DNA of 64,000 nt, taken from Candidatus Gottesmanbacteria bacterium (lineage in GTDB: Bacteria; Patescibacteriota; Microgenomatia; UBA10105; UBA927). Positions 75-60,740 of this stretch are shown here, piece after piece. The notes under the pieces are model-generated. The model was not told the origin of the DNA. It ran no database searches and saw only the letters and a list, made by a program, of their open reading frames with translations. Positions within the stretch are counted from its first letter, which is position 1, and the number at the start of each line of letters is the position of its first letter. The stretch covers positions 640,696 to 704,695 of the forward strand of contig CAWBPL010000002.1 of NCBI GenBank assembly GCA_963790805.1, written 5' to 3'. The translations under genes were made by a program, and so were the position numbers.

Positions 75-220
75 AGCGATTCGACTCGGTAAATATTTTT
101 GAATAAGCGGATAATAGTTAATCGAGCACTGGCGGGAAAAAAATCCGTGACAGGACCCACATCTGTTCAGTTCCTGCGCATGACGGTGCTGCAAAATACA
201 TACCTTTCCGCGCAAATACT
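75..220 (+). repeat. Palindromic (hairpin-forming) intergenic repeat element, copy A
   Basis: The core 172-220 (tcctgcgcatgacggtgctgcaaaatacatacc...ccgcgcaa) aligns by eye at about 75-80% identity with 39901-39948. It aligns almost perfectly with the reverse complement of 59262-59287. The 5' arm cggtaaatatttttg (88-102) is partly complementary to caaaatacatacc (192-204). Confidence 0.6.
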
Positions 221-241
221 ATCTCGTGGTATTATGCAGCT

Positions 242-14276: not shown

Positions 14277-15284
14277 TTATACGCGTACCGGTTTTCCGCC
14301 CATCCGAAGCGATTTTGTGGCACACGCGAGACACGTTACGACGCTTAGGCCCATGGACCCATCGCTGATCGGCGACGTATTGGTTCGTACGGCTTTCACA
14401 AATTCTTTCGCCACCCCGAAAAGGCCTTCCTCGATATCAATGTGGGGGACGATTGCAGAGCCGCTTCTATAGCCGATGCGCAATTGGTACGATTGTTTTG
14501 GGTCTTTGATGAATGAGATGCCCTTGTCGTAAATTTTCAATTTTTCCGACGGCTCTATGTCATCGAATGTCAGCATTTTTTTCGTTCCCACAAAAATCAT
14601 GCGGCGTATTTTGATAGGGGAGAGCCAGCTGACATGACAGTGGATAAAAAGATTATTATCATAGCGGGCGCCGATGTGTGCGACCGTTTCCTGTTTCAGT
14701 TGCTTTTGGGTAATACCTGTCGCGGAGATGGTTTTCGGATTTTTGCCGAAGAGATAATTCATAATGGCAAAATCGTGAGTCGCGAGATCATAAATGACGT
14801 TTGCGTCTTTTTGAAGGATACCCAGATTGGTTCGTACGCTGTCGACGTAAAAAATATCGCCCAGCGTTCCTTGGTGAATGATGGATTTCAACTTTTGTAA
14901 TGCCGGTGTGTACACGAACGTATGATCGACCATGAGAATTTTTTTCTTCCGTTTGGCAAGTTTGACTAATTCTTTGGCTTCTTTGACCGTTTGGGTCATC
15001 GGCTTTTCGACCAACACGTGTTTGCCGGCCCGAAGGGCAACACTGGCGAGCTTGAAGTGGAGTGAGGTTGGCGTCGCAATGACAATCGCGTCAACTGATT
15101 CATCATTTAATACATCGTGATAACTTTTTGTGGTTTTGATAGCTGGGTATATATGAGCGACACTTGCAAGTACCGCTGGATTTACATCGCAGATCCAAAC
15201 AAGAGAAGCGTCTTTCACGCGGGAAAAATTACGGACAATGTTCGGGCCCCAGTATCCAAATCCAATAAAACCGATGCGGATCAT
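14277..15284 (-). CDS. Gfo/Idh/MocA-family NAD(P)-dependent sugar oxidoreductase
   Basis: The N-terminal IRIGFIGFGYWGPNIVRNF Rossmann motif and the EKPM motif are present. Its 335 aa is similar in size to nucleotide-sugar 3-dehydrogenases. Confidence 0.75.
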   Translation of the reverse strand: MIRIGFIGFGYWGPNIVRNFSRVKDASLVWICDVNPAVLASVAHIYPAIKTTKSYHDVLNDESVDAIVIATPTSLHFKLASVALRAGKHVLVEKPMTQTVKEAKELVKLAKRKKKILMVDHTFVYTPALQKLKSIIHQGTLGDIFYVDSVRTNLGILQKDANVIYDLATHDFAIMNYLFGKNPKTISATGITQKQLKQETVAHIGARYDNNLFIHCHVSWLSPIKIRRMIFVGTKKMLTFDDIEPSEKLKIYDKGISFIKDPKQSYQLRIGYRSGSAIVPHIDIEEGLFGVAKEFVKAVRTNTSPISDGSMGLSVVTCLACATKSLRMGGKPVRV

Positions 15285-16133: not shown

Positions 16134-17027
16134 ATGAGACACATCTTGGTAACAGGGGGCAGCGGATTTATCGGACACAATATCGCCGAATCATTGAGTG
16201 GCGAATTTTCTCTTCTGGTTCCTACTCACAAAGAACTTGATTTGGTCGATAGTCAACTTCTTGGCAGATACATGAAAGTTCACAACATCGATACAATTAT
16301 TCATGCTGCAACAGGCGACCGGTTCGGCGGTTTCGGTGACAGTATCAGGATGTTTGCATCTATTCTTGAACAGGGAAAAGCCGTAAAGCAGATTATCCAT
16401 TTCGGATCCGGCGCGGAATACGATAAACGCAGAAATCTTATCCGCGTAAAAGAAACGGAATTTGGCGAACATTTACCGGTGGATGAATACGGATTGGCAA
16501 AATATTTTATGAGTTTGCTTGCGAAGTCCCGTGCGAACATTGTGACGCTTCGGCTGTTTGGAGTTTACGGACCTCATGAGGATTATCGCAGCAAATTTAT
16601 ATCCAATACAATTGCGAAAGAGCTTTTTGGGCTACCTATCGTTATTAAACAGAATGTCGTTTTTGATTATCTGTATATTGATGATTTAACCAAGATTCTT
16701 ACATTTATTCTGAAACGTCCGATGCGGCACGCGGTCTATAACGTAACGCCGGATGAATCGATATCATTGTCCCAAATCGCCGGGATCATTAAGAAAATTT
16801 CAGGTAACAAAACGCCATTCACTATTCTTAATTCTGGTTATAATTTTCAATATACCGGCGATAATCTGCGGTTGCGAAAAGAAATTCCCACATTCAAGTT
16901 CCATACCTATGAGGAGGGAATAGAGAAGTTATATGCCTATTATAAATCCCATAAAAAAGAACTCAGTAAAACAGTATTAAAAATGGATGATTTTTTGGCG
17001 CGTTCTCTGACACGGAAGAACACATGA
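16134..17027 (+). CDS. NAD-dependent nucleotide-sugar epimerase/reductase (SDR)
   Basis: ILVTGGSGFIGHN and YGLAK (YxxxK). 297 aa. Confidence 0.7.
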   Translation: MRHILVTGGSGFIGHNIAESLSGEFSLLVPTHKELDLVDSQLLGRYMKVHNIDTIIHAATGDRFGGFGDSIRMFASILEQGKAVKQIIHFGSGAEYDKRRNLIRVKETEFGEHLPVDEYGLAKYFMSLLAKSRANIVTLRLFGVYGPHEDYRSKFISNTIAKELFGLPIVIKQNVVFDYLYIDDLTKILTFILKRPMRHAVYNVTPDESISLSQIAGIIKKISGNKTPFTILNSGYNFQYTGDNLRLRKEIPTFKFHTYEEGIEKLYAYYKSHKKELSKTVLKMDDFLARSLTRKNT

Positions 17028-26162: not shown

Positions 26163-26252
26163 ACTCAGGATTGCGACGTACAGGTTACTCAGTATATACC
26201 TATCTAATCAGTTTTTTCGCTTAAGAAAGCTGCAAACCTGAGTAAGATAGGT
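26163..26252 (+). ncRNA. Structured leader-like RNA motif, copy 1 (unclassified)
   Basis: An extended hairpin spans 26198-26252. The outer stem is ACCTATCT/AGATAGGT and the inner stem is TCAGTTTT/AAACCTGA. The apical stem GCTT/AAGC has an AAGA loop. The 5' ACTCAGG (26163-26169) is complementary to CCTGAGT (26237-26243). It is homologous to 30944-31031, with compensatory pair changes between the two. Confidence 0.5.
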
Positions 26253-26274
26253 GTAACTCCAATCAATCAATTGT

Positions 26275-26760
26275 ATGTCATCACTCGTTTATACTGTCGG
26301 AATATTTCTCGTCATATTTATTCTTCATAGTGTATTGCATCAAATTCTCAAACTTTTTGGTGTCGTAACATTTAAAAGCATGGTTGTATATGTGCTGGGA
26401 TTCCTTCCGCTTATCATTCTTTGGAAAGAGGGATTTCTTGTAATCCCGATGTCCTCATGTATTTTCTATATATTATTGGTTTTTGTTGTTGCGCCGTATT
26501 ATTTGGCGGTGACGCTCGAAGGGGAGACGCCGGCAGCGATGATTCTTAAAGCATTTTCCCTGAAAAAAATGTGGACAGTTAAAGAGCTCATCAGTTTATT
26601 TACGGTTCAGGGATTGTTGTGGGATCGCATAAACAAACTTGAGTCAACCGGTTTAATCCGCAAACGGAAAGAACACTTTATCGCTACATCAAATGGTCTT
26701 CGTGTCGTCGCATGGATAGAATGGTACAGAAAGTTATTTCATCGGTCCGTTTCGGGTTAA
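26275..26760 (+). CDS. Small membrane protein with C-terminal winged-helix-like domain
   Basis: 161 aa with three N-terminal TM helices. The soluble tail (TVKELISLFTVQGLLWDRINKLESTGLIRKRKEHFIATSNGLRVV) follows a helix-turn-helix plus wing pattern. Confidence 0.4.
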   Translation: MSSLVYTVGIFLVIFILHSVLHQILKLFGVVTFKSMVVYVLGFLPLIILWKEGFLVIPMSSCIFYILLVFVVAPYYLAVTLEGETPAAMILKAFSLKKMWTVKELISLFTVQGLLWDRINKLESTGLIRKRKEHFIATSNGLRVVAWIEWYRKLFHRSVSG

Positions 26761-30943: not shown

Positions 30944-31031
30944 ACTCAGGTTTGTAATTAAGTTTTTGAGTATAGACCCATCTAATCAGATTTTTCGTCC
31001 CAAGAGACTGTAAATCTGAGTAAGATGGGTC
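30944..31031 (+). ncRNA. Structured leader-like RNA motif, copy 2 (unclassified)
   Basis: The hairpin spans 30975-31031. The outer stem is GACCCATCT/AGATGGGTC and the inner stem is TCAGATTT/AAATCTGA. The apical stem GTC/GAC sits in an 18-nt cap, as in copy 1. The 5' ACTCAGG lies at 30944-30950. Confidence 0.5.
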
Positions 31032-31103
31032 TACATATCCGGTCGATTGTTTTTTGTAACTGCTGACGTATAATGTGAACACCTTCTGAAACTGCCCCGC
31101 CGA

Positions 31104-32075
31104 ATGAATGATATGGCACGAAAAACTCGATTAGCTGATAAAACAATTCTGGTTACCGGCGGTACCGGATTTGTGGGAAGTCATTTGGTTGAGAAATTAT
31201 GCGCTTCCGGCGCTCGCGTTGTTGTTCCCTATAGAAGCGTTGATCCAAAGAGTTACTTCGCCATACAAAAACTTCAAACAAAGGCCGTCATGACCATTGC
31301 AGATCTTAAGAATTACACAAGAGTTCTTGATATCGTGACAAAGTATGAAATTACGCACATTTTTCATCTTGCAGCGCAGCCCATTGTAACAACTGCATAT
31401 ATAAATCCGCTGGAAACCATGGCGTCAAATGTTATGGGGACTGCTCATATACTTGAAGCCGCGCGGGTGTCCGGCGTCAAAGGCGTTATCATAACGTCTT
31501 CAGATAAGGCCTACGGCAAAAGCAAAAAACAGTATGAGGAAACTGATCCTTTAAGAGGTGATCATCCATACGAGGCTTCCAAAAGTGCGGCTGATCTTCT
31601 CGCCCATTCGTATTGGAAAACGTATCGTTTGCCGGTCGTCGTTACACGGTTTGGGAATATTTATGGACCCGGAGACCTTAATTTTTCCCGTATTGTACCC
31701 GGCATCATGAAAGCCATTTTTGATAAAGAGGTATTGCATCTTCGAAGTGACGGGACGTTTGTCCGTGATTATGTCTACGTCGGGGACATTGTGTCGGCGT
31801 ATATGTGGATACTCGATCATTTCGATTTGGTCCGTGGTGAAGCCCTCAACGTAGCATCCGATACATCCGTATCTGTGTTGGATCTCATTAAAAAGTCCAA
31901 ATCCATTCTTCATAAACCGATCCGCTATTCGATTGATAAAACTGAGGTCAACGAGATTACGTATCAACATTTGTCGTACGAAAAAATAAAAAAGCTCGGC
32001 TGGCGGCCGCATATTTCTCTTAAACAGGGTTTGACGCAAACGTATAAGTGGTATAAAAAATATTCGCGAACCTAA
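31104..32075 (+). CDS. rfbG: NDP-hexose 4,6-dehydratase, probably CDP-glucose 4,6-dehydratase
   Basis: ILVTGGTGFVGSH, NVMGT, SSDKAYG and YEASK (YxxxK) are present. Its position between rfbF and rfbH supports a CDP-glucose substrate. A TATAAT box lies at 31069-31074. Confidence 0.6.
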   Translation: MNDMARKTRLADKTILVTGGTGFVGSHLVEKLCASGARVVVPYRSVDPKSYFAIQKLQTKAVMTIADLKNYTRVLDIVTKYEITHIFHLAAQPIVTTAYINPLETMASNVMGTAHILEAARVSGVKGVIITSSDKAYGKSKKQYEETDPLRGDHPYEASKSAADLLAHSYWKTYRLPVVVTRFGNIYGPGDLNFSRIVPGIMKAIFDKEVLHLRSDGTFVRDYVYVGDIVSAYMWILDHFDLVRGEALNVASDTSVSVLDLIKKSKSILHKPIRYSIDKTEVNEITYQHLSYEKIKKLGWRPHISLKQGLTQTYKWYKKYSRT

Positions 32076-38939: not shown

Positions 38940-39803
38940 ATGGGAATTATAAAGAATCCATCATGCGTATTGTGCGGGGGGGGTGAATTTACCATACTTT
39001 TTTCCCATCACAATAACTGGAAGATGGGGAAATGCGCGACGTGCGGACTTGTGCAGATAACCCCCATGCCCGGTAAAAAAGAGATTGCCGAATTGTACCA
39101 TGAGGATTTTGATCATTTTGACCCCTATATTGAACAAAGTGAGGTGCACCATACATATTTTCGGCAGAAACTTGGTGAGCTCAAGCGCAATCTTCACGAT
39201 CTGAAGCTTCTGGATATCGGCTGTCTCACCGGTATACTTCTTATCGAAGCGAAACGAAAGGGTATGAGAGTGGTTGGTGTTGATATTTCAGCGGATGCGG
39301 TGAAGTATTGCTGCAGTCAAAGGTTGAAGGTATTCAATGGCACCGTGCAGTCGATTGAGCGGACGTTAAAACCGAAATCGTTTGACGTCGTTACTGCATT
39401 TCAAGTAATAGAACATGAGCGTGATCCTCTAAAGATGATGAAAAGGATATATTTGTTACTCAAAAGGAATGGTACCGTGATGATGGCGACACCCAGCTAT
39501 GGAGGGTTCTGGAGAAAGCTCATGGGCAAGCGCTGGTTCGGATTTGCCCACCCTGAGCATGTTGTTCTTTTTGATTTTGCTACCATGCGGATGCTTCTTG
39601 AGAAATCCGGCTTTCGGGACATAGAAATTCGCGCCGACAGCCCGCGTCCGTTTCCGTTGTCGTTTGCATTTACGCGCGGTGCCGATTATTTTCCATGGCT
39701 TGGGTGGGCGCTTAAGCCGATCGGCAAGCTTCTTGACCCGTTCGATATCAAAAATCCCGTAAACCCGTGGGATGATATGCTCGTTATCGCAAGGAAAAGA
39801 TAA
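38940..39803 (+). CDS. SAM-dependent methyltransferase with N-terminal Zn-ribbon (paralog of 11239-12117)
   Basis: It has CVLCGG...CATCG and the SAM motif LLDIGCLTGILL, followed by AFQVIEHERDP. Confidence 0.7.
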   Translation: MGIIKNPSCVLCGGGEFTILFSHHNNWKMGKCATCGLVQITPMPGKKEIAELYHEDFDHFDPYIEQSEVHHTYFRQKLGELKRNLHDLKLLDIGCLTGILLIEAKRKGMRVVGVDISADAVKYCCSQRLKVFNGTVQSIERTLKPKSFDVVTAFQVIEHERDPLKMMKRIYLLLKRNGTVMMATPSYGGFWRKLMGKRWFGFAHPEHVVLFDFATMRMLLEKSGFRDIEIRADSPRPFPLSFAFTRGADYFPWLGWALKPIGKLLDPFDIKNPVNPWDDMLVIARKR

Positions 39804-39804
39804 A

Positions 39805-39948
39805 ATGCACGTTGCACTTCGGTCGGTATGCTTTTTGTCGCACCCGTCAAGAAGGCTTGAGTCTTTTGTGAGCCTACGAGCCAAAGCAAGTTTGTTGAGA
39901 TCCTGCGCGTGACTGTGCTGGCAAAAAGCATACCAACCCGTGCAACAC
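39805..39948 (+). repeat. Palindromic (hairpin-forming) intergenic repeat element, copy B
   Basis: The 5' arm GTTGCAC-ttc-GGTCGGTATGCTTTTTG (39811-39837) is complementary to CAAAAAGCATACCAACC-c-GTGCAAC (39922-39946), with one mismatch. The stem continues inward as GCAC/GTGC and GTCA/TGAC. The core is shared with copies A and C. Confidence 0.65.
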
Positions 39949-39990
39949 TACATCTTGTCTTCTTGACTCACCTTTCAAAACAGTATACAA

Positions 39991-41001
39991 ATGCTTGGGA
40001 TGAAGCCCTATCTTTCCATCATCATCCCTGCCTACAACGCGAGCGTTTCCCTGAGTCGTTTGCTTGAGTCATTGAAAAAATCATCGTTTCGAAGTTTTGA
40101 AGTGATCGTCGGCGATGATGCATCAAACGAACAATACCTCGTGGGGAAGGGGATCAGGATTGTCAGATTGACGCGCAATAAAGGTCCGGCTGCGGCCCGT
40201 AACGCCGCAGCGAAACGCGCAAACGGTCAGGTATTGGTGTTTCTTGATAGCGACGTGACGGTCTATCCAGATACGCTTGCCAAAATTGCCGCGAAATTTA
40301 AAGAAGATCACGATTTGACCGCAATAACAGGCGTCTGGGATAAACATCAAAAAACCAAAGCTTTTTTCCCTCAATTTAAAGCAATCCGCGACTGGAGCTA
40401 CTGGACAAACGAACGGGAGCGGGATGGTTATTATTATCTTTTCAGCACCAGAATTGCCGCTATACGCCGCGAAGTATTTAAGCGGCTTGGAGGATTCAAT
40501 GAAGCATTCCGTCAGATGGAGGATGTAGAGCTAACCTACCGCATTGCGAAGCGGTACGCCATCATTTTTGCGCCTGATGTACGGGTACATCATGAATTTG
40601 AAGGATTCTGGGCTGTCGCTCGAAAATATTTCTGGCGAAGTTACTATTGGACAAAGCTGTATAAAGAGCGTAAAAAATTTGATCCGGTTGCAACCACCGT
40701 CTGGGAAAGCGTCGCTGCGGTATCGGGAGTTGGAGCCGTCGCGTGTGTCGTTGTCGGCATCATCGTCTTTTTCTTTCTTCCTTTAGCGTGGGTAAAACTC
40801 GTTACTCTGGTGAGCGCTGTCATATTGCTTCTTGTCCACATATTTCTGCTTCAAAAATTCCTGCGGTTTGTGTATAAAGAAAAGGGATTGGTATTTACGC
40901 TGAAGGCGCTGGGAACAGGACTTGTTTTGTACTGTATTATTTTGGGAGGATCTCTCTATTATTCCGTTCGATCACCAACACCCCGTGGTATGATACAGTA
41001 A
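39991..41001 (+). CDS. GT2 glycosyltransferase with C-terminal TM helices
   Basis: LSIIIPAYNASVSL, VGDDASNE, FLDSDV and QMEDVEL are present. There are 3 C-terminal TM helices. Confidence 0.75.
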   Translation: MLGMKPYLSIIIPAYNASVSLSRLLESLKKSSFRSFEVIVGDDASNEQYLVGKGIRIVRLTRNKGPAAARNAAAKRANGQVLVFLDSDVTVYPDTLAKIAAKFKEDHDLTAITGVWDKHQKTKAFFPQFKAIRDWSYWTNERERDGYYYLFSTRIAAIRREVFKRLGGFNEAFRQMEDVELTYRIAKRYAIIFAPDVRVHHEFEGFWAVARKYFWRSYYWTKLYKERKKFDPVATTVWESVAAVSGVGAVACVVVGIIVFFFLPLAWVKLVTLVSAVILLLVHIFLLQKFLRFVYKEKGLVFTLKALGTGLVLYCIILGGSLYYSVRSPTPRGMIQ

Positions 41002-44701: not shown

Positions 44702-44730
44702 TTGCATTTTACGTATTCCCTTGTCATACT
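44702..44730 (+). promoter_or_regulatory. Candidate promoter of the pilin genes
   Basis: TTGCAT (44702-44707), a 17-nt spacer, then CATACT (44725-44730). It lies 16 nt before ATG 44747. Confidence 0.35.
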
Positions 44731-44746
44731 GGACGAAAGATCGTCT

Positions 44747-45442
44747 ATGACACATCGTTCTTGCCCTATTGTGAGTAAGAAGGGATTTACGCTCGCCGAA
44801 CTTCTTATTGTTGTAGCCATTCTTGCCATTCTCCTTATCATTCTATTAGTGAATCTTCGCACACAGATTGCGCGAGGTGATGACATCAAACGAAAAGCAG
44901 ATCTTGCCAAAATCCAAAAATCATTTGAGGAATATTATAACGATAAGCAGTGCTATCCGCCGACTGCCATAATTGCAAACTGCGGAAGCTCTGACTTAGC
45001 TCCGTACCTGAATCAGGTCCCGTGTGATCCGACGACGAAAAAACCGTATTTGTATGTCACAGGAACGCCTACTGCGTGTGATGGCTATCATCTTTGCGCA
45101 AAACTTGAAGATCTCAGTGATCCTGAGATCGTACGAATTGGTTGCAGTCCTCAGGGGTGCGGTTGGGGAGCGGGGTATAATTATTGTGTTGCGGTGGGTT
45201 CCAGTGTCACGGCTCCCGACTATGTTCCATCAAACGGTACAGGTCCGGAAGAAACAGGTGCGGGTGGTTCTCCAACTCCTACGCCAATTCCAGGTCAGTG
45301 GGCGTGTACGCCTGCAGGCGATTGTGATTCATATGCAAACCCGCAAGGAGCAAATTGTCCATTTACCTATCAGCAGTTCGGATGTATATATAATGGAGTA
45401 TATCAGTGTACCACCGTGGCTAACAGATGTAAAAATTACTAG
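44747..45442 (+). CDS. Type IV pilin-like protein (class III signal peptide), Cys-rich C-terminus
   Basis: MTHRSCPIVSKKG|FTLAELLIVVAILAILL carries the prepilin G|FTLxE motif followed by a hydrophobic helix. The C-terminal part is P/T/G-rich with 8 or more Cys. The track ORF begins at TTG 44702. Confidence 0.8.
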   Translation: MTHRSCPIVSKKGFTLAELLIVVAILAILLIILLVNLRTQIARGDDIKRKADLAKIQKSFEEYYNDKQCYPPTAIIANCGSSDLAPYLNQVPCDPTTKKPYLYVTGTPTACDGYHLCAKLEDLSDPEIVRIGCSPQGCGWGAGYNYCVAVGSSVTAPDYVPSNGTGPEETGAGGSPTPTPIPGQWACTPAGDCDSYANPQGANCPFTYQQFGCIYNGVYQCTTVANRCKNY

Positions 45443-45454
45443 GCACAGCGATGT

Positions 45455-46000
45455 ATGAATAAACAGAAAACTCAGCGGGGTTTTACGCTTATGGAATTAC
45501 TTATTGTGATCATTCTTTTGGGGATTCTTATCGCCGCCGGAATAAGCAGTTTTACGTCATCACTCAAAAAATCACGTGACAGCAGACGCAAAAATGATTT
45601 ACGGCAAATCGCAATATCTTTGGAGACCTTTAATAATGATAATGGACACTATCCTTTAAGTAACGCTGAGGGTCAAATATTGGGGTGTACGGATGGAGTG
45701 AGTATATGCACGTGGGGCAATAGTTTTCAGGATGCAACAACGATCTACATGATTCAGCTTCCGGCCGATACCAGCATCTCGCAGCGGTACTTTTATTACA
45801 GTCCGGACGGGACGTATTTTCAGCTTTTTGCACGGCTGGAGAATACGCTGGACAGTGATGTGCCCAAGAATGGACAGAATCAGGCGCGTGAATTTGGCGA
45901 TCTGAATTGCGGAACCGATACGACTTCGCTATATTGTAACTATGGGGTTTCAAGCGCCAATAAGCTGTTGGAAGCGGGGCACACGGTACTATATGAATAA
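45455..46000 (+). CDS. Type IV pilin-like protein
   Basis: MNKQKTQRG|FTLMELLIVIILLGILIAAGI. Confidence 0.8.
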   Translation: MNKQKTQRGFTLMELLIVIILLGILIAAGISSFTSSLKKSRDSRRKNDLRQIAISLETFNNDNGHYPLSNAEGQILGCTDGVSICTWGNSFQDATTIYMIQLPADTSISQRYFYYSPDGTYFQLFARLENTLDSDVPKNGQNQAREFGDLNCGTDTTSLYCNYGVSSANKLLEAGHTVLYE

Positions 46001-46493
46001 AAAGCAGGGTTTTACGCTTCTTGAGCTTCTCGTTGTGATTGCAATCATTGCTGTCATCGTGGCGTTTGCCGTAACGAATTTTGTCGGAGCGAGGCAGCGG
46101 GCGCGCGATATCCGGAAAAAAGCGGAACTGCAACAACTCCAGTCTGCACTCCGGCTTTATTATAATGATTACAATACGTATCCCGGACCGGCGTCAACGA
46201 TTTCAAATGACCTTAACGGGTGCGGGAACGCCACGCCTCCCACGGCCAGCTGTGTTCAGAATTGCGCCGGACAATTTGCGGTTGGAGGAACGGGATGTAC
46301 CAATGTATATATGAAACTGCTGCCAGAGCCGACGGATTACAGATGGAGTTATGAGCAGGTTGCCGGCGGGGATAATTTTTGTTTATGGACGGCGCTTGAT
46401 AACACCTCGGATTCGGAAATAGCGAAGTCACAGGCAAAATGTAATCAGGTATGCTCAGTTCCTTCATCGGACTACGTAATCTGTGCAGATTAA
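45993..46493 (+). CDS. Type IV pilin-like protein
   Basis: The internal ATG 45993 gives MNKKQG|FTLLELLVVIAIIAVIVAFAV. There is an 8-nt overlap with the upstream pilin gene. The track ORF starts at 45942. Confidence 0.8.
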   Translation: MNKKQGFTLLELLVVIAIIAVIVAFAVTNFVGARQRARDIRKKAELQQLQSALRLYYNDYNTYPGPASTISNDLNGCGNATPPTASCVQNCAGQFAVGGTGCTNVYMKLLPEPTDYRWSYEQVAGGDNFCLWTALDNTSDSEIAKSQAKCNQVCSVPSSDYVICAD

Positions 46494-46500
46494 ATTTCCT

Positions 46501-54231
<7,731 letters not shown>

Positions 54232-55340
54232 TAAAAGCCTGATAATCAGATAAATTAGATAACATTAGACTGTCCATATATATACTTAACCTTATATATA
54301 ATAAGCGTGTCAATAGGTTTGTTGATATATTTAAGTACTAATCAGATATGGTACTCAAAAGCATGGATTGTGGAATGTACTATCAATAATAGGGATATTT
54401 CACGAATTACCGCATAGATATAAAGAAGGTATTAATAATATTATTAATATTTTTAATCAATAGATATTGATTAAAAAAAATGAATATACTGTAATTATTT
54501 CCCGCGACCAGAGTTTTACAGTTTATTGAGACAAACGCGTGAAAAGGCGATAGAGTAACCTAAATTATCTTTATGACCTGTAATGATTAGTTTAATCACC
54601 TTATAGTAAAATCAGCTTTGGAACACTCATTATTGATACTCTCAGATATGTAATTAGTCAATATATATTGATATATGGACTCTTAGCATTCTTAACAGTT
54701 TTGTGCTATTAGTAATTTTGCTTATTGTATTGCCCTAAAACGATCATCACATTAACACACTTTTCAGTTTATATTGTTATAAGTCTTTGTTCGGTTTTTT
54801 GTAATAATACTCAAAAAATGTTGAAGCTAAATAATCGTAAGAAATAGGGGTTGGCAATTACATTCTATGAGTGCCATTATTGTTTTAGCTTATATTTTCG
54901 TGCCAAAAATGATTTGTTATACCCTAGAAGAAGTGAGGCGAGGGTAAAATATAAGACATAGAAATTTATAAGGAATGAGGCAAGGCTATTCGCAAACAGC
55001 ACTCCTAAAGTGCTTATTGGTTTAGATTGATCTAACGTTGTTTTATTGTGTTACATTGAATGAAAATTTATAAAACTGATCATACATGAAGTTATAAGCA
55101 CTCTTTCAAGTTTGGATTGTTATAGTAATATATCGGTATTTATTCGTTTATAATTATAGGTTTATAAAAACTCATATTAACCTCTTTGTTGTATTTGAAT
55201 ATCCCGTAGTTAGTAAAACGGTTTGCGTGAGATATGCGTGTGAAAATATTGGTTTAGCTACCGTATTTTTAGGTCACTGGAATGACCTACAAGGGGCAAT
55301 AGAAAGTAAAGATGTAAAATTGGTACGTATATAATATATA
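54232..55340. other. 1.1-kb AT-rich non-coding region between the giant gene and leuS
   Basis: No ORF of 60 aa or more occurs in any frame. The region is visibly AT-rich. It contains a perfect 18-nt palindrome ATTAATAATATTATTAAT (54431-54448). It also contains the inverted repeat AATCAATA-ga-TATTGATT (54455-54472). Confidence 0.7.
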
Positions 55341-57892
55341 ATGAAGCGCATGAGACAGTCTTCGTATCCACATAACGAGATAGAAAGAATGGCAGAACGC
55401 TTGGGAAAAGGCGAGAGTTGATATTGTTGATATAACGAAAGCCAAAAAACCTTTTTATAACCTCATGATGTTTCCATATCCGTCAGCTGAAGGGCTTCAC
55501 GTTGGAAACATGTATGCATTTACCGGATCTGATATTTATGGTCGATTTAAACGGATGCAGGGCTACGATGTCTTTGAACCAATCGGGCTTGGATGGATTC
55601 GGAATTCATAGCGAAAATTATGCTTTAAAAATCGGGCGGCACCCTATGGATCACGCAACGATAACGGAAAAAAATTATTATAATCAGTTGCATAAGATCG
55701 GTGCGATGTTTGATTGGACCCGGACAGTGGAGACATATGATACAGATTATTATAGATGGACACAGTGGCTGTTTGTTCAGATGTTTAAGCATGGTTTAGC
55801 TTATCGCAGCAAGGCGGAAGTTAACTTTTGTCCGAGCTGTAAGACGGTATTGGCAGATGAACAGGTGATTGATGGAAAGTGTGAACGATGCGGTAATATT
55901 GTAGAGAAAAGATTGTTGGAACAATGGTTTTTTAAGATTACCGCATATGCGGGGAAACTGCTGGAAAACTCATTTAGCCTCGATTGGTCGGAAAAAGTAA
56001 AAGTGGCACAAAAAAATTGGATCGGGAAAAAAGAGGGGATAGAAATTACTTACCCGGTAGTTGATGAGAAAAATAATCAAATAGGAAACGTAACATGCTT
56101 CACAACTCGGCCTGATACGAACTTCGGTGCCACATTTGTTGTCATTGCGCCCGAACATCCTTTTGTCAGTCAAGCACTTAAAGTGACAAAAAATGAACAG
56201 CGCGTCAAAATAACCAAATACGTTTCCGAAGCAAAAATGAAATCAGAAGACGATCGGATACAGGAAGGAAGAAAGAAAACTGGGGTCGATACAACGCTCT
56301 ATTGTGTTAATCAGCTCAACGGAACGAAGATGCCGTTGTATATTTCTGATTTTGTGCTCATGAATTTTGGCACCGGAGCGGTTGTCGGCGTGCCCGGACA
56401 TGACATGCGCGATTTTGAATTTGCGACAATGTTTCATATTCCCGTCATTCGAGTCGTTGTCGGTTCGGATGGTGATAAAAGCCCAATTACAAAAAAAGAG
56501 CAAGTGCAGGAAGAAGAAGGCGTCATGATCAATTCTGAATTTTTAGACGGCAAAGATATTCATAAAGCGACCATTGAGATGATGGATTATTTGGAGAAAA
56601 AGGGTTGGGGGAAGCGCGTTACGACGTACCATTTGCGCGATTGGCTTATTAGCCGCCAGCGCTATTGGGGACCGCCGATACCGATGATTTATTGTTTGGA
56701 ATGTGAAAAAAGAGGTAAGGGTGAACGAAGTGAAATGCAGGGTTGGTACAGCGTGCCGGATAAAGATCTTCCCGTCGTATTGCCGAAAATTGAAGATTAC
56801 AGGCCGGGAAATGACGGTATAGCGCCCTTAGCAAAACATAAAGATTTTTATAATGTGGCATGCCCTGCGTGCGGTAGGTAGCGCGACGGGAAACTGATGT
56901 TTCCGATACATTTCTGGATAGCTCATGGTATTTTCTTCGCTATCCATCTGTTGGCAATGCTAAGGTCTCCCGCCAGCGCGGGATCCCCGCATTGCCTTTT
57001 GATCCAGCGATTACGAAAAAATGGCTGCCTGTCCATATGTATACCGGAGGCGCGGAGCATAGCGTATTGCACCTTATGTACAGCCGTTTTGTGACCATGG
57101 CGCTCAAAGACTGGGGATATATCAATTTTGAGGAACCGTTCAGCACGTTTTTACGCACATGGATTGGTGATTAAAGATGGTGCAAAAATGAGCAAAAGCA
57201 AGGGGAATATCGTTAATCCGGATGAATATATCGCTCTCTATGGCGCCGATGCGCTTCGCATGTATCTTATGTTCATGGGGCCGTTTGATCAGGGCGGTGA
57301 TTTTCGTGATGCCGCAATGGAAGGGATGAGCCGCTGGGTCGGCCGGGTATGGCGTCTGGGAGAGGCTGTCCGGACAAAGAAAGCGAGCTCATCGGTTAAA
57401 ATTCATGGAGCATTGCAAAAACTGATTAAAAAAGTGACGGATGATCTGGAAAAACGCCGCTACAATACCGCAATTGCTTCGATGATGGAATTTACCAACC
57501 TTGTTGCGGATGAATCTGACGCGATAAGTACCGACGACTATACAACGCTTCTGCTTCTTATGGCGCCCTTTGCGCCGTATATCACTGAGGAGCTTTGGCA
57601 AACAATGCATAATAATAATTCTGCTAAAGAATTTCAGGCGAACGATTCTATTCATCACCACGCATGGCCTGCGTACGATCTTACCGGTATAAAAGAAGAA
57701 GAAACGGCATTTGTGGTGCAGGTAAACGGGAAGCTTCGGGATACCATGACGGTTTCTGTTGAAAAAAGTAAGAATCAAGGAGAAATGGAAGCATTGGCGA
57801 AGGCGTCGGAACGGATTAAACGATATATTGCCGATAAAAAAATTATAAAAGTCATTTTTATATCCGGCAAGCTTCTCAATTTTGTTGTTTAA
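55341..57892 (+). pseudogene. leuS: Leucyl-tRNA synthetase gene interrupted by four frame changes (pseudogene or locally error-rich assembly)
   Basis: LeuRS sequence is recoverable only by joining frames. Positions 55341-55388 read MKRMRQSSYPHNEIE. Positions 55390-55590 read WQNAWEKA...MFPYPSAEGLHVGNMYAFTG...EPIGL. Positions 55592-56878 read DGFGIHSENY...CPACG. Positions 56878-57150 read VARRETDVSDTFLDSSWYFLRY...EEPFSTF. Positions 57152-57892 read YAHGLVIKDGAKMSKSKGN to the stop. Confidence 0.8.
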
Positions 57893-57981: not shown

Positions 57982-58713
57982 ATGCCTTCAATGGACCTCC
58001 TGCCGGTCGAAGAAAACCCGTCAGATTTGCTCGAAATCTGGAAACAATACAAGATTCCTGTGGTTTTGGGTGTGGGAAGCGTTGTGTTGGCGGTGATTTC
58101 GATATTTCTTCTTGTCAAATCAAGCCAAAGTGCAAATCCCATTCAATTTTCTCATACGAATTCGGCGCAAAATACGGATACAGCAGGCTCGTTTGAATCA
58201 AGCACTCTAGGGAGTCAGTCTGCTAATTTGGGGGGTATTACGGTGGACGTGGAGGGAGCGGTGGTAAAACCAGGTCTTGTGACACTACTATCGGGTAACA
58301 GAGTGGAGGATGCCATCGTGGCAGCTGGAGGATTGAGACGTGATGCAGACGAAATATTTGTTGCGCAAAATATCAACCGCGCAATGAAACTCGTTGACGG
58401 CATGAAACTGTATATTCCGAGTGTCGGAGAAGACCAGACGTCGTACAATCCAAAGCTAAATGGTTCTATAGATGAGACGTCGCACAATTTTAGCGCCGTT
58501 GTTGCGAAGCCGGGCGCGTCTAGCCAAAATGGTGCCTTCGTTTCTATAAATATGGCTTCAAAAGATGATTTAGATTCGCTTCCGGGCGTTGGCCCAGTCA
58601 CGGCGCAAAAAATTATCGACAATCGGCCGTATGCAAGTCTTGACGATCTGGTGACGAAAAAGGCAATCGGGCCGTCATTGTATGCAAAACTCAAAAACAT
58701 GCTGTCACTGTAA
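57982..58713 (+). CDS. comEA: Competence protein ComEA (membrane-anchored helix-hairpin-helix DNA receptor)
   Basis: It has an N-terminal TM helix (IPVVLGVGSVVLAVISIFLLV) and a SLBB-like middle region (ITVDVEGAVVKPGLVTL). The C-terminal tandem HhH is INMASKDDLDSLPGVGPVTAQKIIDNRPYASLDDL. Confidence 0.85.
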   Translation: MPSMDLLPVEENPSDLLEIWKQYKIPVVLGVGSVVLAVISIFLLVKSSQSANPIQFSHTNSAQNTDTAGSFESSTLGSQSANLGGITVDVEGAVVKPGLVTLLSGNRVEDAIVAAGGLRRDADEIFVAQNINRAMKLVDGMKLYIPSVGEDQTSYNPKLNGSIDETSHNFSAVVAKPGASSQNGAFVSINMASKDDLDSLPGVGPVTAQKIIDNRPYASLDDLVTKKAIGPSLYAKLKNMLSL

Positions 58714-58754: not shown

Positions 58755-59831
58755 ATGACGTTGGATTTGTTTACAGGGCTTATTAACGGTCTGTTGCCGG
58801 AACCTCATGCCGGTTTATTAAACGGAATTTTATTTGGTGTCAAGACGACATTGAATCCGGATCTTCAACAATCTCTTTTAAAATCCGGTACATCATATAT
58901 TTTAGCGCACTCTGGTATGAATATTTCCATCCTCGTTGGTATATCAAATCTCCTACTTCTTCGCTTTGTTCGTAGACCTATAGCAAATTTGGTTTCTGTG
59001 ATAATCATTATAGGGTATGTTTGGTTAGTGGGAATAACACCGAGCGTACTTCGTGCGGCGCTTATGGCCGCGATATCTTTGGCAGCCGTATCATTGGGTC
59101 GTCAAAACTGGACTCTATTAAGTTGGGTATTGGCGGTCGGTATTATGCTTATTATTAATCCCCTGTGGATCGGCGATGTTTCATTTCAGATTTCAGTCAT
59201 GGCCACCTTAGGGATAATTGTGTTTGGAGGCAAAAAATCTCACGCGGGGAGGCTCACAATTTTGAGCACCGTCACGCGCAGGAACTCCACGTCAGCAGGC
59301 TCTTTACCAATGCGCGCGCAGGTCACAAACGAAAATTTAGACGCATCTTCAGTTTCTCTCGTGAACTCAGCTCCAACTCTTCATACGTTGGATTCTCACT
59401 CGCAAAGTGAAGCTGCGCAAAATTTTGTTAGCTCCCCGCGCGGGAGGGCTTTTTCGCGTCCACATCATCCACCAATCTTAAGCCTTCTTGACGGATACGC
59501 AACAAATTGCGCGCCGACCAAAGCGATTGCAAAATTTATATGGTCTTTGATCGCAGATGACCTTCGGGTTACCCTCGCCGCTCAAGCGTTTACGATTCCC
59601 ATCATCATCTTTCAATTCCATCAGATATCGCTTGTCTCTCCCCTTTCGAATATCCTTATTGGCTGGCTGATTGCGCCGGTTATGGCTTTGGGCTTTGCGC
59701 TCGTCATTGGTGGTCTTTTGTGGGCGCCGATCGGTATGATATTCGCTTGGATTGTTTTTGTCCCGTTGTCATACATCATTCTTGTTATTGATTTGACGAG
59801 CAAACTGCCGTTTGCAAGTTTGTCGTGGTGA
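58755..59831 (+). CDS. comEC: ComEC/Rec2 competence channel, membrane (competence) domain part; carries an in-frame repeat-element insertion
   Basis: LPEPHAGLLNGILFGVKTTLNPDLQQSLLKSGTSYILAHSGMNISIL is the ComEC signature region. The ORF ends at TGA 59829-59831, which is in frame with the next ORF. Confidence 0.75.
   Translation: MTLDLFTGLINGLLPEPHAGLLNGILFGVKTTLNPDLQQSLLKSGTSYILAHSGMNISILVGISNLLLLRFVRRPIANLVSVIIIIGYVWLVGITPSVLRAALMAAISLAAVSLGRQNWTLLSWVLAVGIMLIINPLWIGDVSFQISVMATLGIIVFGGKKSHAGRLTILSTVTRRNSTSAGSLPMRAQVTNENLDASSVSLVNSAPTLHTLDSHSQSEAAQNFVSSPRGRAFSRPHHPPILSLLDGYATNCAPTKAIAKFIWSLIADDLRVTLAAQAFTIPIIIFQFHQISLVSPLSNILIGWLIAPVMALGFALVIGGLLWAPIGMIFAWIVFVPLSYIILVIDLTSKLPFASLSW
59240..59535 (-). 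repeat. Palindromic repeat element, copy C (composite, about 290 nt), inserted in-frame inside comEC
   Basis: The reverse complement of 59262-59287 (gttcctgcgcgtgacggtgctcaaaat) is nearly identical to 170-196. Positions 59480-59494 (aagccttcttgacgg) are an exact reverse-complement match to 39844-39858. An internal inverted duplicate pairs 59242-59270 with 59412-59443. Confidence 0.65.
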
Positions 59832-59843
59832 GTTTATGAGCGT

Positions 59844-60740
59844 ATGAAATTGCGAGTCGGATACCTTATCTGCGGAATTACTACAGGGTTGATTATCCTT
59901 ATTGGATTTATATGGACTCAGCCCGACGGGTTGCTCCATATTGTTTTTTGCAATGTCGGCCAAGGCGATAGCGCGTATGTCCGTTTTCCGGACGGGCGCG
60001 ATATGCTTGTTGATGGTGGTCCGGATAACGGGTTAGCGCTTACCTGCCTTGGTCGCCATATGCCATTTTGGGATAGGCATATCAATATTGTCGTCATGTC
60101 GCATCCGCAGGCTGACCATATGGGAGGGCTCGTTGAGGTTTTTAAGCGGTTTTCCGTTGATTATTTTGTGCGAAGTGATGCCGACAATAATACTGATATT
60201 TACAAAAGCCTTCTTACCGCCGTGAATGAACGGCATGTACCTGTCCGGTACGTAACTGCCGGAGATCAAATTGCAATTGGATCCACTTCCCTTCTGATGA
60301 TTTGGCCCTCTTTTGAACAACTTGCGCGTGCTAAACCTACAGCTGAGACAGTGGCTCATGTGGGTGTTGCAGTCGGCAACCTGAACGACGACTGCCTGGT
60401 TTTTGTGTTGCGGTATGGAAATTTCGATGCAGTTTTTCCGGGAGATGCAGACCGTGATGTTGAGGCTAATTACACCGGACTACAGGTCTTTCACAATCCT
60501 GTAGAAATTCTTAAAGTGCCGCATCACGGAAGTAAAACCGGTATGAATTTAGCTTTTATTGACTGGCTAAAACCACAATTAGCAGTAATCTCGGTCGGGA
60601 AGAATACATACGGTCAGCCTGCAAAAGAGGCTGTTGATATGCTCCAAAACGTTGGTTCACGCGTGTTGCGGACTGATCAAAAAGGCGACATAGAAGTAAC
60701 AAGCGACGGAATACGTTGGTCAGTAAAAACGGAAAAATAG
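59844..60740 (+). CDS. comEC: ComEC C-terminal metallo-beta-lactamase domain part
   Basis: It has a TM helix followed by FCNVGQGDSAYVRFPDGRDMLVDGG, SHPQADHMGG (HxHxDH-type) and LKVPHHGSKTG. Confidence 0.8.
   Translation: MKLRVGYLICGITTGLIILIGFIWTQPDGLLHIVFCNVGQGDSAYVRFPDGRDMLVDGGPDNGLALTCLGRHMPFWDRHINIVVMSHPQADHMGGLVEVFKRFSVDYFVRSDADNNTDIYKSLLTAVNERHVPVRYVTAGDQIAIGSTSLLMIWPSFEQLARAKPTAETVAHVGVAVGNLNDDCLVFVLRYGNFDAVFPGDADRDVEANYTGLQVFHNPVEILKVPHHGSKTGMNLAFIDWLKPQLAVISVGKNTYGQPAKEAVDMLQNVGSRVLRTDQKGDIEVTSDGIRWSVKTEK

Follow-up and report, generated by a model that had tools for sequence, protein, structure and literature searches.

Rickettsia palindromic elements (RPEs; Ogata et al. 2000), as later accounts summarize them, are palindromic repeats that lie in frame in many unrelated genes (PMC10969869, PMC3733652). 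Their sequences end in CGTC, and some of them are included among the CGTC repetitive extragenic palindromes (REPs), which are mostly head-to-head dimers able to form long hairpins, are in some cases intragenic and have no dedicated transposase (Di Nocera et al. 2013, PMC3733652). Bacterial MITEs (transposable elements of the miniature inverted-repeat class) such as ERIC, BOX and the Anabaena MITEs are small and non-coding, carry terminal inverted repeats and are occasionally fused in frame to host open reading frames (ORFs; PMC10969869). Intragenic REPs and MITE fusions are therefore already known (PMC3733652, PMC10969869), and long inverted repeats in protein-coding genes, with both arms translated, are described for the mitochondria of Nematomorpha, at least in outline, in PMC6649704. 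In the literature we found no report of such elements in the candidate phyla radiation (CPR), Patescibacteria or Gottesmanbacteria. In this work we have analysed a stretch of 64,000 nucleotides from a Candidatus Gottesmanbacteria genome (contig CAWBPL010000002.1, positions 640,696 to 704,695; hereafter the window), in which the gene of the channel protein ComEC carries an insert. The original prediction, made from the letters of the window, was that a selfish palindromic element had been inserted here in frame in the manner of an RPE. Alignment, copies in coding and non-coding DNA, hairpin folding and insert-free orthologues all support it, and we consider it likely that the comEC insert is an in-frame copy of a family of palindromic mobile repeats which is read through by the ribosome. 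The features on which the argument rests are the following.

58755..59831, + strand: ORF of the ComEC 'Competence' channel domain, 358 aa (ORF list, Pfam PF03772).
59241..59537, + strand: in-frame comEC insert of 297 nt or 99 codons, HAGRLTILST...APTKAIAKF (orthologue alignment).
59463..59525, - strand: left arm of the 'A' element in comEC, …GGTCGG-variable-CCGTCAAGAAGGCTT (profile match, E=5e-7).
59232..59287, - strand: right arm of the 'A' element in comEC, TTCCTGCGCGTGACGGTGCT-variable-CCTCCCCGCG (profile match, E=2e-6).
59307..59453, - strand: 'D' hairpin repeat between the A arms, GCGGGGAGC.AA.AAAATTTTG..CTTCACTTTGCGAG…GAGAGAAACTGAAG…TCTAAATTTTCG… (blastn, alignment, profile census).
39806..39950, + strand: intergenic A-only copy with both arms and a short unrelated centre, forming a single long hairpin.
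134..222, + strand: intergenic partial copy, the 3' part of the B core (…GGGAAAAAAATCCGTGACAGGACCCAC) followed by the A right arm (nhmmer, E=5e-11).

The ComEC ORF is covered by PF03772 in two stretches (Pfam, E=2.4e-41), and those of its 446 homologues that bear names belong to Gottesmanbacteria. In the alignment the insert-free orthologues are 258-286 aa long and the window protein exceeds them by about 99 residues, which sit between the conserved motifs ..LGIIVFG.K and DDLRVTLAAQ. That an extra stretch lies between conserved membrane segments, and that the frame stays open across it, had been correctly recognized; its length, first put at about 90 aa or about 95 codons, had to be revised to 99 codons. 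The 297 nt contain no stop in the comEC frame and three to six in each of the other five frames, have a GC content of 51% compared with 43% in the flanks, and encode peptides which include VTNENLDASSVSLVNSAPTLH and VTNENLDASSVSLVNSAPTLHTLDSHSQSEAAQNFVSSPR. Neither the insert nor its open frame is an assembly artefact, since an identical 358-aa ComEC is encoded in L211, a short-read assembly obtained independently from this organism or one almost identical to it (99.69% identity to the window over 11.1 kb). Because the length of the insert is a multiple of three and the frame in use is without a stop, the ribosome would read through it; that the insert is actually translated is what we infer from its sequence.

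Where does this extra DNA come from? As judged by sequence comparison, the insert is a composite of two nested repeats, in which the arms of the A element surround the D hairpin. A profile built from six intact foreign copies of A with the further module B detects both arms in comEC (59463-59525 and 59232-59287, with the E-values listed above) and also matches the window at 140-219 (E=1.6e-10), 39816-39862 (E=9e-4) and 39901-39945 (E=6e-3). The left arm shares with 39844-39858 the exact 15-mer that had been predicted (15 of 15 against the reverse complement of 59480-59494), and it pairs with the right arm in the consensus fold of 12 copies. The right arm matches 39894-39950 at 39 of 54 positions and 170-196 at 23 of 24. 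For the latter the predicted similarity to the reverse complement of 59262-59287 is real, none of 2000 shuffles being as good, although the count of 26 of 27 positions gives way to 23 of 24 aligned positions and one 1-nt gap. The claim that the reverse complement of 59495-59530 agrees with 39807-39843 at 75-80% was not upheld, as only 23 of 34 positions (68%) are identical, a value that is marginal when taken alone (101 of 2000 shuffles as good); this stretch corresponds to a covarying helix of variable sequence. The internal inverted duplicate (59242-59270 against 59412-59443) is present at 24 of 28 positions, with 0 of 2000 shuffles as good, and it is explained by the composite structure, because the insert consists of A arms around D; the D termini of the insert resemble the A termini in inverted order. 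In formal alignment, then, the nucleotide similarity survives. The centre of the insert (59288-59462) matches at least 11 other loci by blastn, with E from 1e-17 (L124) to 1e-5, and the D profile of our census had the D copy of the window among its own seeds. Another organism has an intergenic A(-)/D(-) composite whose parts follow in the same order (L212:3998-4270; 72% identity over 215 nt, E=9e-26). Since the composite exists there in an unrelated intergenic context, the simplest explanation of the comEC insert is that a composite unit was inserted in one event.

In its intact form, an element of the family to which the window copies belong is a palindrome of about 190 nt with a high degree of structure; the window copies themselves are degenerate. 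Module A consists of two arms of about 50 nt, the left one with the blocks GCTGAGGTCGG … CCGTCAAGAAGGCTTGA and the right one with TTCCTGCGCRTGACGGTGCT … CCTCCCCGCG, and each arm holds a sequence-variable stretch that pairs with its partner in the other arm. B-short is an 81-nt core (27 codons; GCGGGTGAC … GGGGGACCCCCAAGAAGGGGTCCCCTTGTGGGTGTTCTTGGGGGAAAA … GRCAGGACCCGC, with the ends GCGGGTGAC…CAGGACCCGC) which occurs inside A or alone, B-long (about 170 nt) combines the B-short ends with an additional internal domain, and D is a hairpin of about 125 nt whose termini are those of A in inverted order. The modules are without coding capacity and have terminal inverted repeats, GCTGAGGTCG … CTCCCCGC in A and D and GCGGGT … ACCCGC in B. 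The 25-nt core TCCTGCGCNTGACNGTGCTGCAAAA occurs three times in the window where no occurrence is expected. Here the A-only copy (39806-39950; DNA fold of -30.4 kcal/mol, z=-3.55) is flanked by genes for a methyltransferase (38940-39803) and for a GT2 enzyme (39991-41001), and the partial copy lies directly upstream of a gene starting at 242. Just past the end of the window L211 has an intergenic B-long (14434-14606, E=5e-23) and an intergenic D (16495-16610, E=5e-27), which brings the family to five loci within about 70 kb of the source genome.

Copies were also found in related material comprising 80 ComEC loci from metagenomes, searched first for motifs and then with profiles, and about 0.63 Mb of related DNA. 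Besides the two copies of the window, intergenic copies are present in L126, L187, L211 (two) and L212. Within genes, LeuS holds A in frame in L122, B-short in L139 and B-long in L157. B-long also lies upstream of comEC in L144, L145, L151 and L155, at positions consistent with LeuS whose ORF context was unchecked, and D lies in seven loci within large ORFs upstream of comEC, which we take as LeuS and which were translated for L001 and L124 only. Protein queries consisting of six-frame translations of the element revealed copies in Tgt (P0121), three glycosyltransferases (P0122, P0125, P0131), TsaD (P0126), the Y-family polymerase DinB (P0127), a Mur ligase (P0128), a radical-SAM protein (P0129) and an unknown protein (P0123). 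When the insert peptide of the window, which is short and degenerate, was itself used in an exhaustive protein search, only two matches reached E<=1e-3, and with this query D was found in a further glycosyltransferase fragment (P0132), where its frame is that of the comEC copy. The DNA of eight protein-derived copies contains a clean B core, at least four of the six B reading frames are in use, and the peptides FPPRTPTRGPLLGGPPTRVTR, GGPPRRGPLVGVLGGK and GDARRGTPKKGSPCG recur among gene-borne copies. In TsaD and the Mur ligase the B insert is exactly 27 residues, which fits 81 nt without duplication. The family is present in at least ten unrelated protein families and in intergenic DNA, in both orientations and in at least four frames. 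Copies in both coding and non-coding contexts, in the source genome as well as in relatives, accord with the original prediction. In viral contigs the B apical 22-mer had no match, and six matches of a D 16-mer were rejected as chance, none of them fitting the D profile; the elements are not evidently phage-borne, as far as these short probes suggest.

Two observations on the host genes may be added. In the LeuS proteins of L122, L139, L157 and others, variable inserts occupy no fewer than three separate sites, one following CxxC…G and preceding GWYPVP, one between YPS and LPWDP and one following SPEHEF; the repeat modules that fill them differ from species to species. Adjoining the Mur ligase gene with the B insert is a gene with 23S_rRNA_IVP/bAvd domains (L201:1634-2017), which mark a type of protein that accompanies diversity-generating retroelements as an accessory.

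Intact copies fold as long rods, for example in L126 with -85.7 kcal/mol (z=-4.4; opposite strand z=-6.0), and the long hairpins expected of them are accompanied by compensatory changes. In the A arms, a double compensatory change is present one or more times in 18 of the 27 consensus pairs when 12 copies, both window copies included, are compared. In B (14 copies) 91% of cells are paired and 11 pairs covary, which was equalled by 0 of 500 shuffles, and controls in which the pairing was slid reached about 50%. Covariation supports the B helix CCCCCAAGAA/TTCTTGGGGG; a competing apical pairing of GGGGGACCCC with GGGGTCCCC was rejected, as its changes are one-sided only and none is compensatory. 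We could also rule out that the A arms are head-to-head dimers of small REP hairpins, because the arms pair with each other and not internally. B has invariant ends and an apical part that hardly varies, and the two are separated by a helix of 6 bp whose sequence differs in almost every copy (for example ACGGGT, AGGCGT, GCGCGT, GGGGGC, GCACGC, CCGCGT, GGACGT and GGGAGC) and which is nevertheless complementary in nearly every one. Its five variable pairs change on both sides (22 cells), a single G.U occurs in one pair, and pairing is lacking in a few cells; beside this helix are a purine-purine mismatch and an AGG bulge, both of them conserved. The idea that its sequence is copied from the flanking target DNA was abandoned, as inspection of the flanks showed no relation. 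On the simplest reading, propagation of the element needs a helix of free sequence beside sequence-specific parts, and the copies stem from many diverged master elements; it may also be that the helix is rewritten at each transposition.

Could the elements, then, be functional structured nucleic acids, motifs of RNA or single-stranded DNA (a ribozyme, say, or a regulatory hairpin or guide-like RNA) that serve the cell or their own propagation, so that the comEC copy matters as RNA or DNA? The strongly covarying helices with their conserved mismatch and bulge would fit such a role, as would the B apical sequence, which is near-invariant across organisms and genes, and two of the three window copies are directly upstream of genes. 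One strand also folds better, with more G.U pairs, in nearly all copies: in 6 of 6 for A+B, 13 of 13 for B-short (the genuine copies L001, L126, L127, L139, L143, L154 and L198-L204), 5 of 6 for B-long and 11 of 12 for D. This strand bias is not independent evidence, however, because it is inherited from the common ancestor of the copies. Rfam 15 gave no window match at the gathering threshold and nothing relevant at E<=1 in 11 loci with intact copies, short or long. With respect to host transcription the copies point either way, they occupy unrelated positions, and those of the window itself are degenerate or partial. We therefore regard a function of this kind as unlikely, and return to the in-frame mobile repeat as the better account of the insert.

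The loop of ComEC into which the insert falls was found to be an insertion hot spot. The loop frame is open, with no stop seen, in every related ComEC locus in which both loop anchors were located, and the length of the loop ranges from a basal 12-20 aa or so to about 115 aa. Element inserts in minus orientation are present in the window, L001, L143, L154 and L140, and in plus orientation in L127, L142, L124 and P0025; as arms and core are reversed together, these are whole-element insertions and not inversions of the centre. In a rough neighbour-joining tree of the flanking protein the clade of the window mixes minus, plus, other and empty loop states, and empty sites occur in the clade closest to the window ComEC. 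The expectation that the insert is lineage-specific is correct insofar as insert-free orthologues exist among the closest relatives; it is not private to the lineage, since many Gottesmanbacteria ComEC carry inserts in the same loop. The empty sites are A-rich runs of Lys codons and the insertion points within the loop differ by about 5-20 nt, which fits repeated hits in a permissive AT-rich loop-coding stretch better than one exact target. Of 38 long ComEC loops, 19 match DNA outside ComEC loops (about 0.6 Mb sampled), including further repeat families.

As to these other repeats, which are not A, B or D, the ComEC loops of L123 and L126 match L155:3312-3435 and L122, that of L131 matches L133:182-291, that of L118 matches L124:1953-2071 and that of L130 matches L150:3854-3949. 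Several of the matches fall upstream of comEC where LeuS lies, and the peptide motif VEDRRSKID..N.SSIFHL is found in both ComEC and LeuS. The insert-free loop of a close relative of the window (L153:2939-3022) contains a small perfect palindrome, CCTGGAG-TTGATAT-CTCCAGG, which could be a footprint or another mini-element.

Does ComEC survive such an insertion? The original prediction left room for the gene having been inactivated, that is, for a pseudogene or a crippled protein which no longer conducts DNA. In favour of this, a disordered insert of 99 residues sits between membrane helices of a channel. Moreover, a ComEC of 228 aa (P0124; ENA), a close relative of that of L127, is truncated by a frameshift inside the B core, which means either that insertions can be harmful or that runs of G and C were mis-sequenced, and broken genes occur elsewhere in the window assembly. 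One of them, LeuS (55000-57892), is split by frame into no fewer than three pieces; the frame changes near 56880 and again near 57130, and the N-terminus is in another frame. Its breaks are assembly errors, since LeuS is a single intact ORF of 850 aa in L211, from which the window differs by 8 gap openings across 11 kb. For comEC itself, of the six frames only its own is open through the insert, the flanks are 67-69% identical to the closest insert-free orthologues, and inserts of 30-100 aa are retained in this loop by dozens of orthologues, in none of which a stop was seen. In an AlphaFold2 model (26 orthologues) residues 162-250 have a predicted local distance difference test score (pLDDT) below 50 and no secondary structure, and the flanking helices (142-158 and 254-287) and the remaining channel reach 80-97. 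The insert is thus predicted to encode a disordered loop between two membrane helices. Given the model scores and the identity of the flanks, a tolerated disordered loop is favoured over a destroyed gene; ComEC with the insert most likely still works, and we consider its inactivation distinctly unlikely.

One might also ask if the insert is simply an old loop of the lineage with a function at the protein level, the similarities of DNA being secondary. Inserts at the ComEC loop are widespread, and the ComEC proteins P0004 and P0010 share the end peptides of the insert (AGR..TVTR, SSLLDG) with the window. Conservation of these nucleotides, however, extends to intergenic DNA, to different genes, to reversed copies and to frames other than that of comEC, and the likeness of these peptides consequently reflects conserved element DNA and not selection on the protein. 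Many lineages have, besides, insert sequences that bear no relation to one another, disorder is predicted for the insert of the window, and half of the long loops sampled (the 19 of 38 above) match DNA outside ComEC, which makes a protein-level origin very unlikely. Hardly credible, lastly, is removal of the element before or during translation, as by an intron or a translational bypass, so that it is absent from the protein: it does form very stable hairpins and some organelle systems bypass or excise GC-rich palindromes in coding regions, but gene-borne copies keep their frame (B has a length of exactly 27 codons, and in the window insert every frame but the one in use is interrupted by stops) although no selection for an open frame would be expected if the element were removed, no intron or ribozyme family was matched, and Pfam found only PF03772 and no intein/Hint domain in the 358-aa protein.

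Several results weigh against the view that a mobile repeat was inserted in comEC. We found no consistent target-site duplication or common target motif; around the B-only copies the two flanks have no direct repeat in common, save for CGAG at L198. No transposase or autonomous partner turned up in about 0.63 Mb of related DNA, where no pair of element ends was seen to flank an ORF, and none of the ten small or unannotated window ORFs that were screened has a transposase domain (they are methyltransferases, glycosyltransferases, a pilin-like protein or without a match). Only three copies of the family lie within the 64-kb window, and a scan of genome contigs with the 19-nt core TCCTGCGCRTGACNGTGCT gave, among the matches listed, only single chance matches in GC-rich genomes. 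The window assembly has indel errors elsewhere, namely in LeuS. Furthermore, a near-invariant B apex next to a complementary hypervariable helix is unlike the simple decay of dead copies and hints at a constraint on both structure and sequence.

What we observe is a repeat family to which the insert belongs, with hairpins kept by compensatory changes, nested copies and open frames, and the following course of events would account for it. A non-autonomous, hairpin-forming mobile DNA element, itself a composite from a superfamily of nested modules (A, D, the 81-nt B and the B-long of about 170 nt) that would have spread through Gottesmanbacteria and Microgenomates, was presumably inserted once into the loop-coding part of comEC, where it would add about 99 disordered residues to a tolerant loop. 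Copies that are in frame and free of stops in such loops would survive selection and be translated, and the same loop of ComEC would have been hit repeatedly in different lineages, in both orientations, with old copies decaying there. As there is no consistent target-site duplication or target motif, it is from the distribution of the copies that mobility is deduced. Movement might proceed via a single-stranded hairpin intermediate and an enzyme acting in trans which leaves no target-site duplication, of the REP/RAYT or IS200/IS605 type. Those systems and the CGTC-tagged REPs come to mind because duplications are lacking, the hairpins are asymmetric between the strands, CGTC stands at the inner arm ends and copies are nested in the centres of palindromes, but this is a resemblance and not a demonstrated membership, and the mechanism seems to us possible though rather doubtful. 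Perhaps A, B, B-long and D form an undescribed superfamily of nested hairpins that is a general source of extra loops in housekeeping proteins of Microgenomates and the CPR, spreads via a strand-specific single-stranded hairpin (DNA or RNA) without target duplication and prefers as its targets A-rich DNA that codes for loops and the tips of palindromes already present, with the variable 6-bp helix of B being functional, rewritten or selected in each round, and not a product of decay. We offer this wider picture as a speculation which may well prove wrong.

The immediate neighbours of comEC are two ORFs.

57982-58713, upstream of comEC: comEA (Pfam HHH_3/SLBB).
59844-60740, downstream of comEC: separate ORF with a metallo-beta-lactamase domain (Pfam Lactamase_B).

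The split arrangement, with a channel ORF and a separate lactamase ORF, is also present in relatives. Elsewhere in the window, another repeat, unrelated to the A/B/D family, has two intergenic copies of 72 nt (26184-26255 and 30962-31033; 75% identical). Each has inverted symmetry within it, and a gene begins a short way downstream (at 26275 and at 31104). Three small clustered genes at 44702-46493 share a repeated 5' segment that forms a family of direct repeats, and the one ORF that was scanned among them (44702-45442) has a match to PF07963, the motif for N-terminal methylation in type IV pilin-like proteins. Next to them, at 46501-54231 (- strand), lies an ORF of 2576 aa with 9-nt-periodic, collagen-like repeats (Gly-X-Y type) at about 52280-53400.

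In-frame translated palindromic repeats have long been treated as a peculiarity of Rickettsia, with scattered intragenic REPs elsewhere, and the same behaviour is now seen in a branch of the CPR, in several related families and at least ten host protein families, the essential LeuS, TsaD and Tgt among them. This gives a concrete origin for lineage-specific inserts in CPR proteins and a warning to annotators that such inserts can be derived from repeats. The ComEC loop, with its empty, plus, minus and decayed sites, is a natural series in which the passage of selfish DNA into protein sequence can be studied. How do these elements compare with those already described? Like the RPEs they are palindromic repeats of about 100-300 bp in several families, located between genes and in frame in unrelated housekeeping genes, where they leave a peptide characteristic of the family at places that the fold tolerates, and no dedicated transposase is known for them. 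By analogy of behaviour, this is the RPE phenomenon, and they may be called RPE-like in-frame palindromic repeats; the likeness is drawn from behaviour, with the CGTC motif as the one shared sequence feature noted, and the host belongs to the CPR (Microgenomates) and not to the Alphaproteobacteria. With the CGTC REPs and REPIN-like dimers they share CCGTCA/TGACGG at the inner ends of the A arms, and B starts with GGGTGAC (GTCACC on the other strand). A tag of four nucleotides is weak evidence of kinship, however, the left flanks of the copies show no constant target tetranucleotide and the ten window ORFs screened include no RAYT. The units are also longer than CGTC REPs (arms of about 50 nt in elements of 81-290 nt), and their arms pair together instead of forming hairpins of their own. 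The terminal inverted repeats, the absence of coding capacity and the in-frame fusion are as in MITEs, from which the elements differ in that no target-site duplication or related insertion sequence was found in the DNA sampled and in-frame insertion looks frequent, not occasional. The coding palindromes and GC-rich palindromic clusters of organelle genes, as far as the account cited above goes, are of an unrelated kind, whereas here discrete repeats also occur between genes. Unlike in the RPEs, there is nesting of modules, with A enclosing B or D and B-long containing a further domain, the loop of one gene has been hit in both orientations in different lineages, and B contains a hypervariable yet complementary helix. 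It is this nested modular architecture, together with the two-orientation hot spot and the hypervariable helix, that distinguishes the elements from the systems known so far, and a distinct mechanism could set them further apart.

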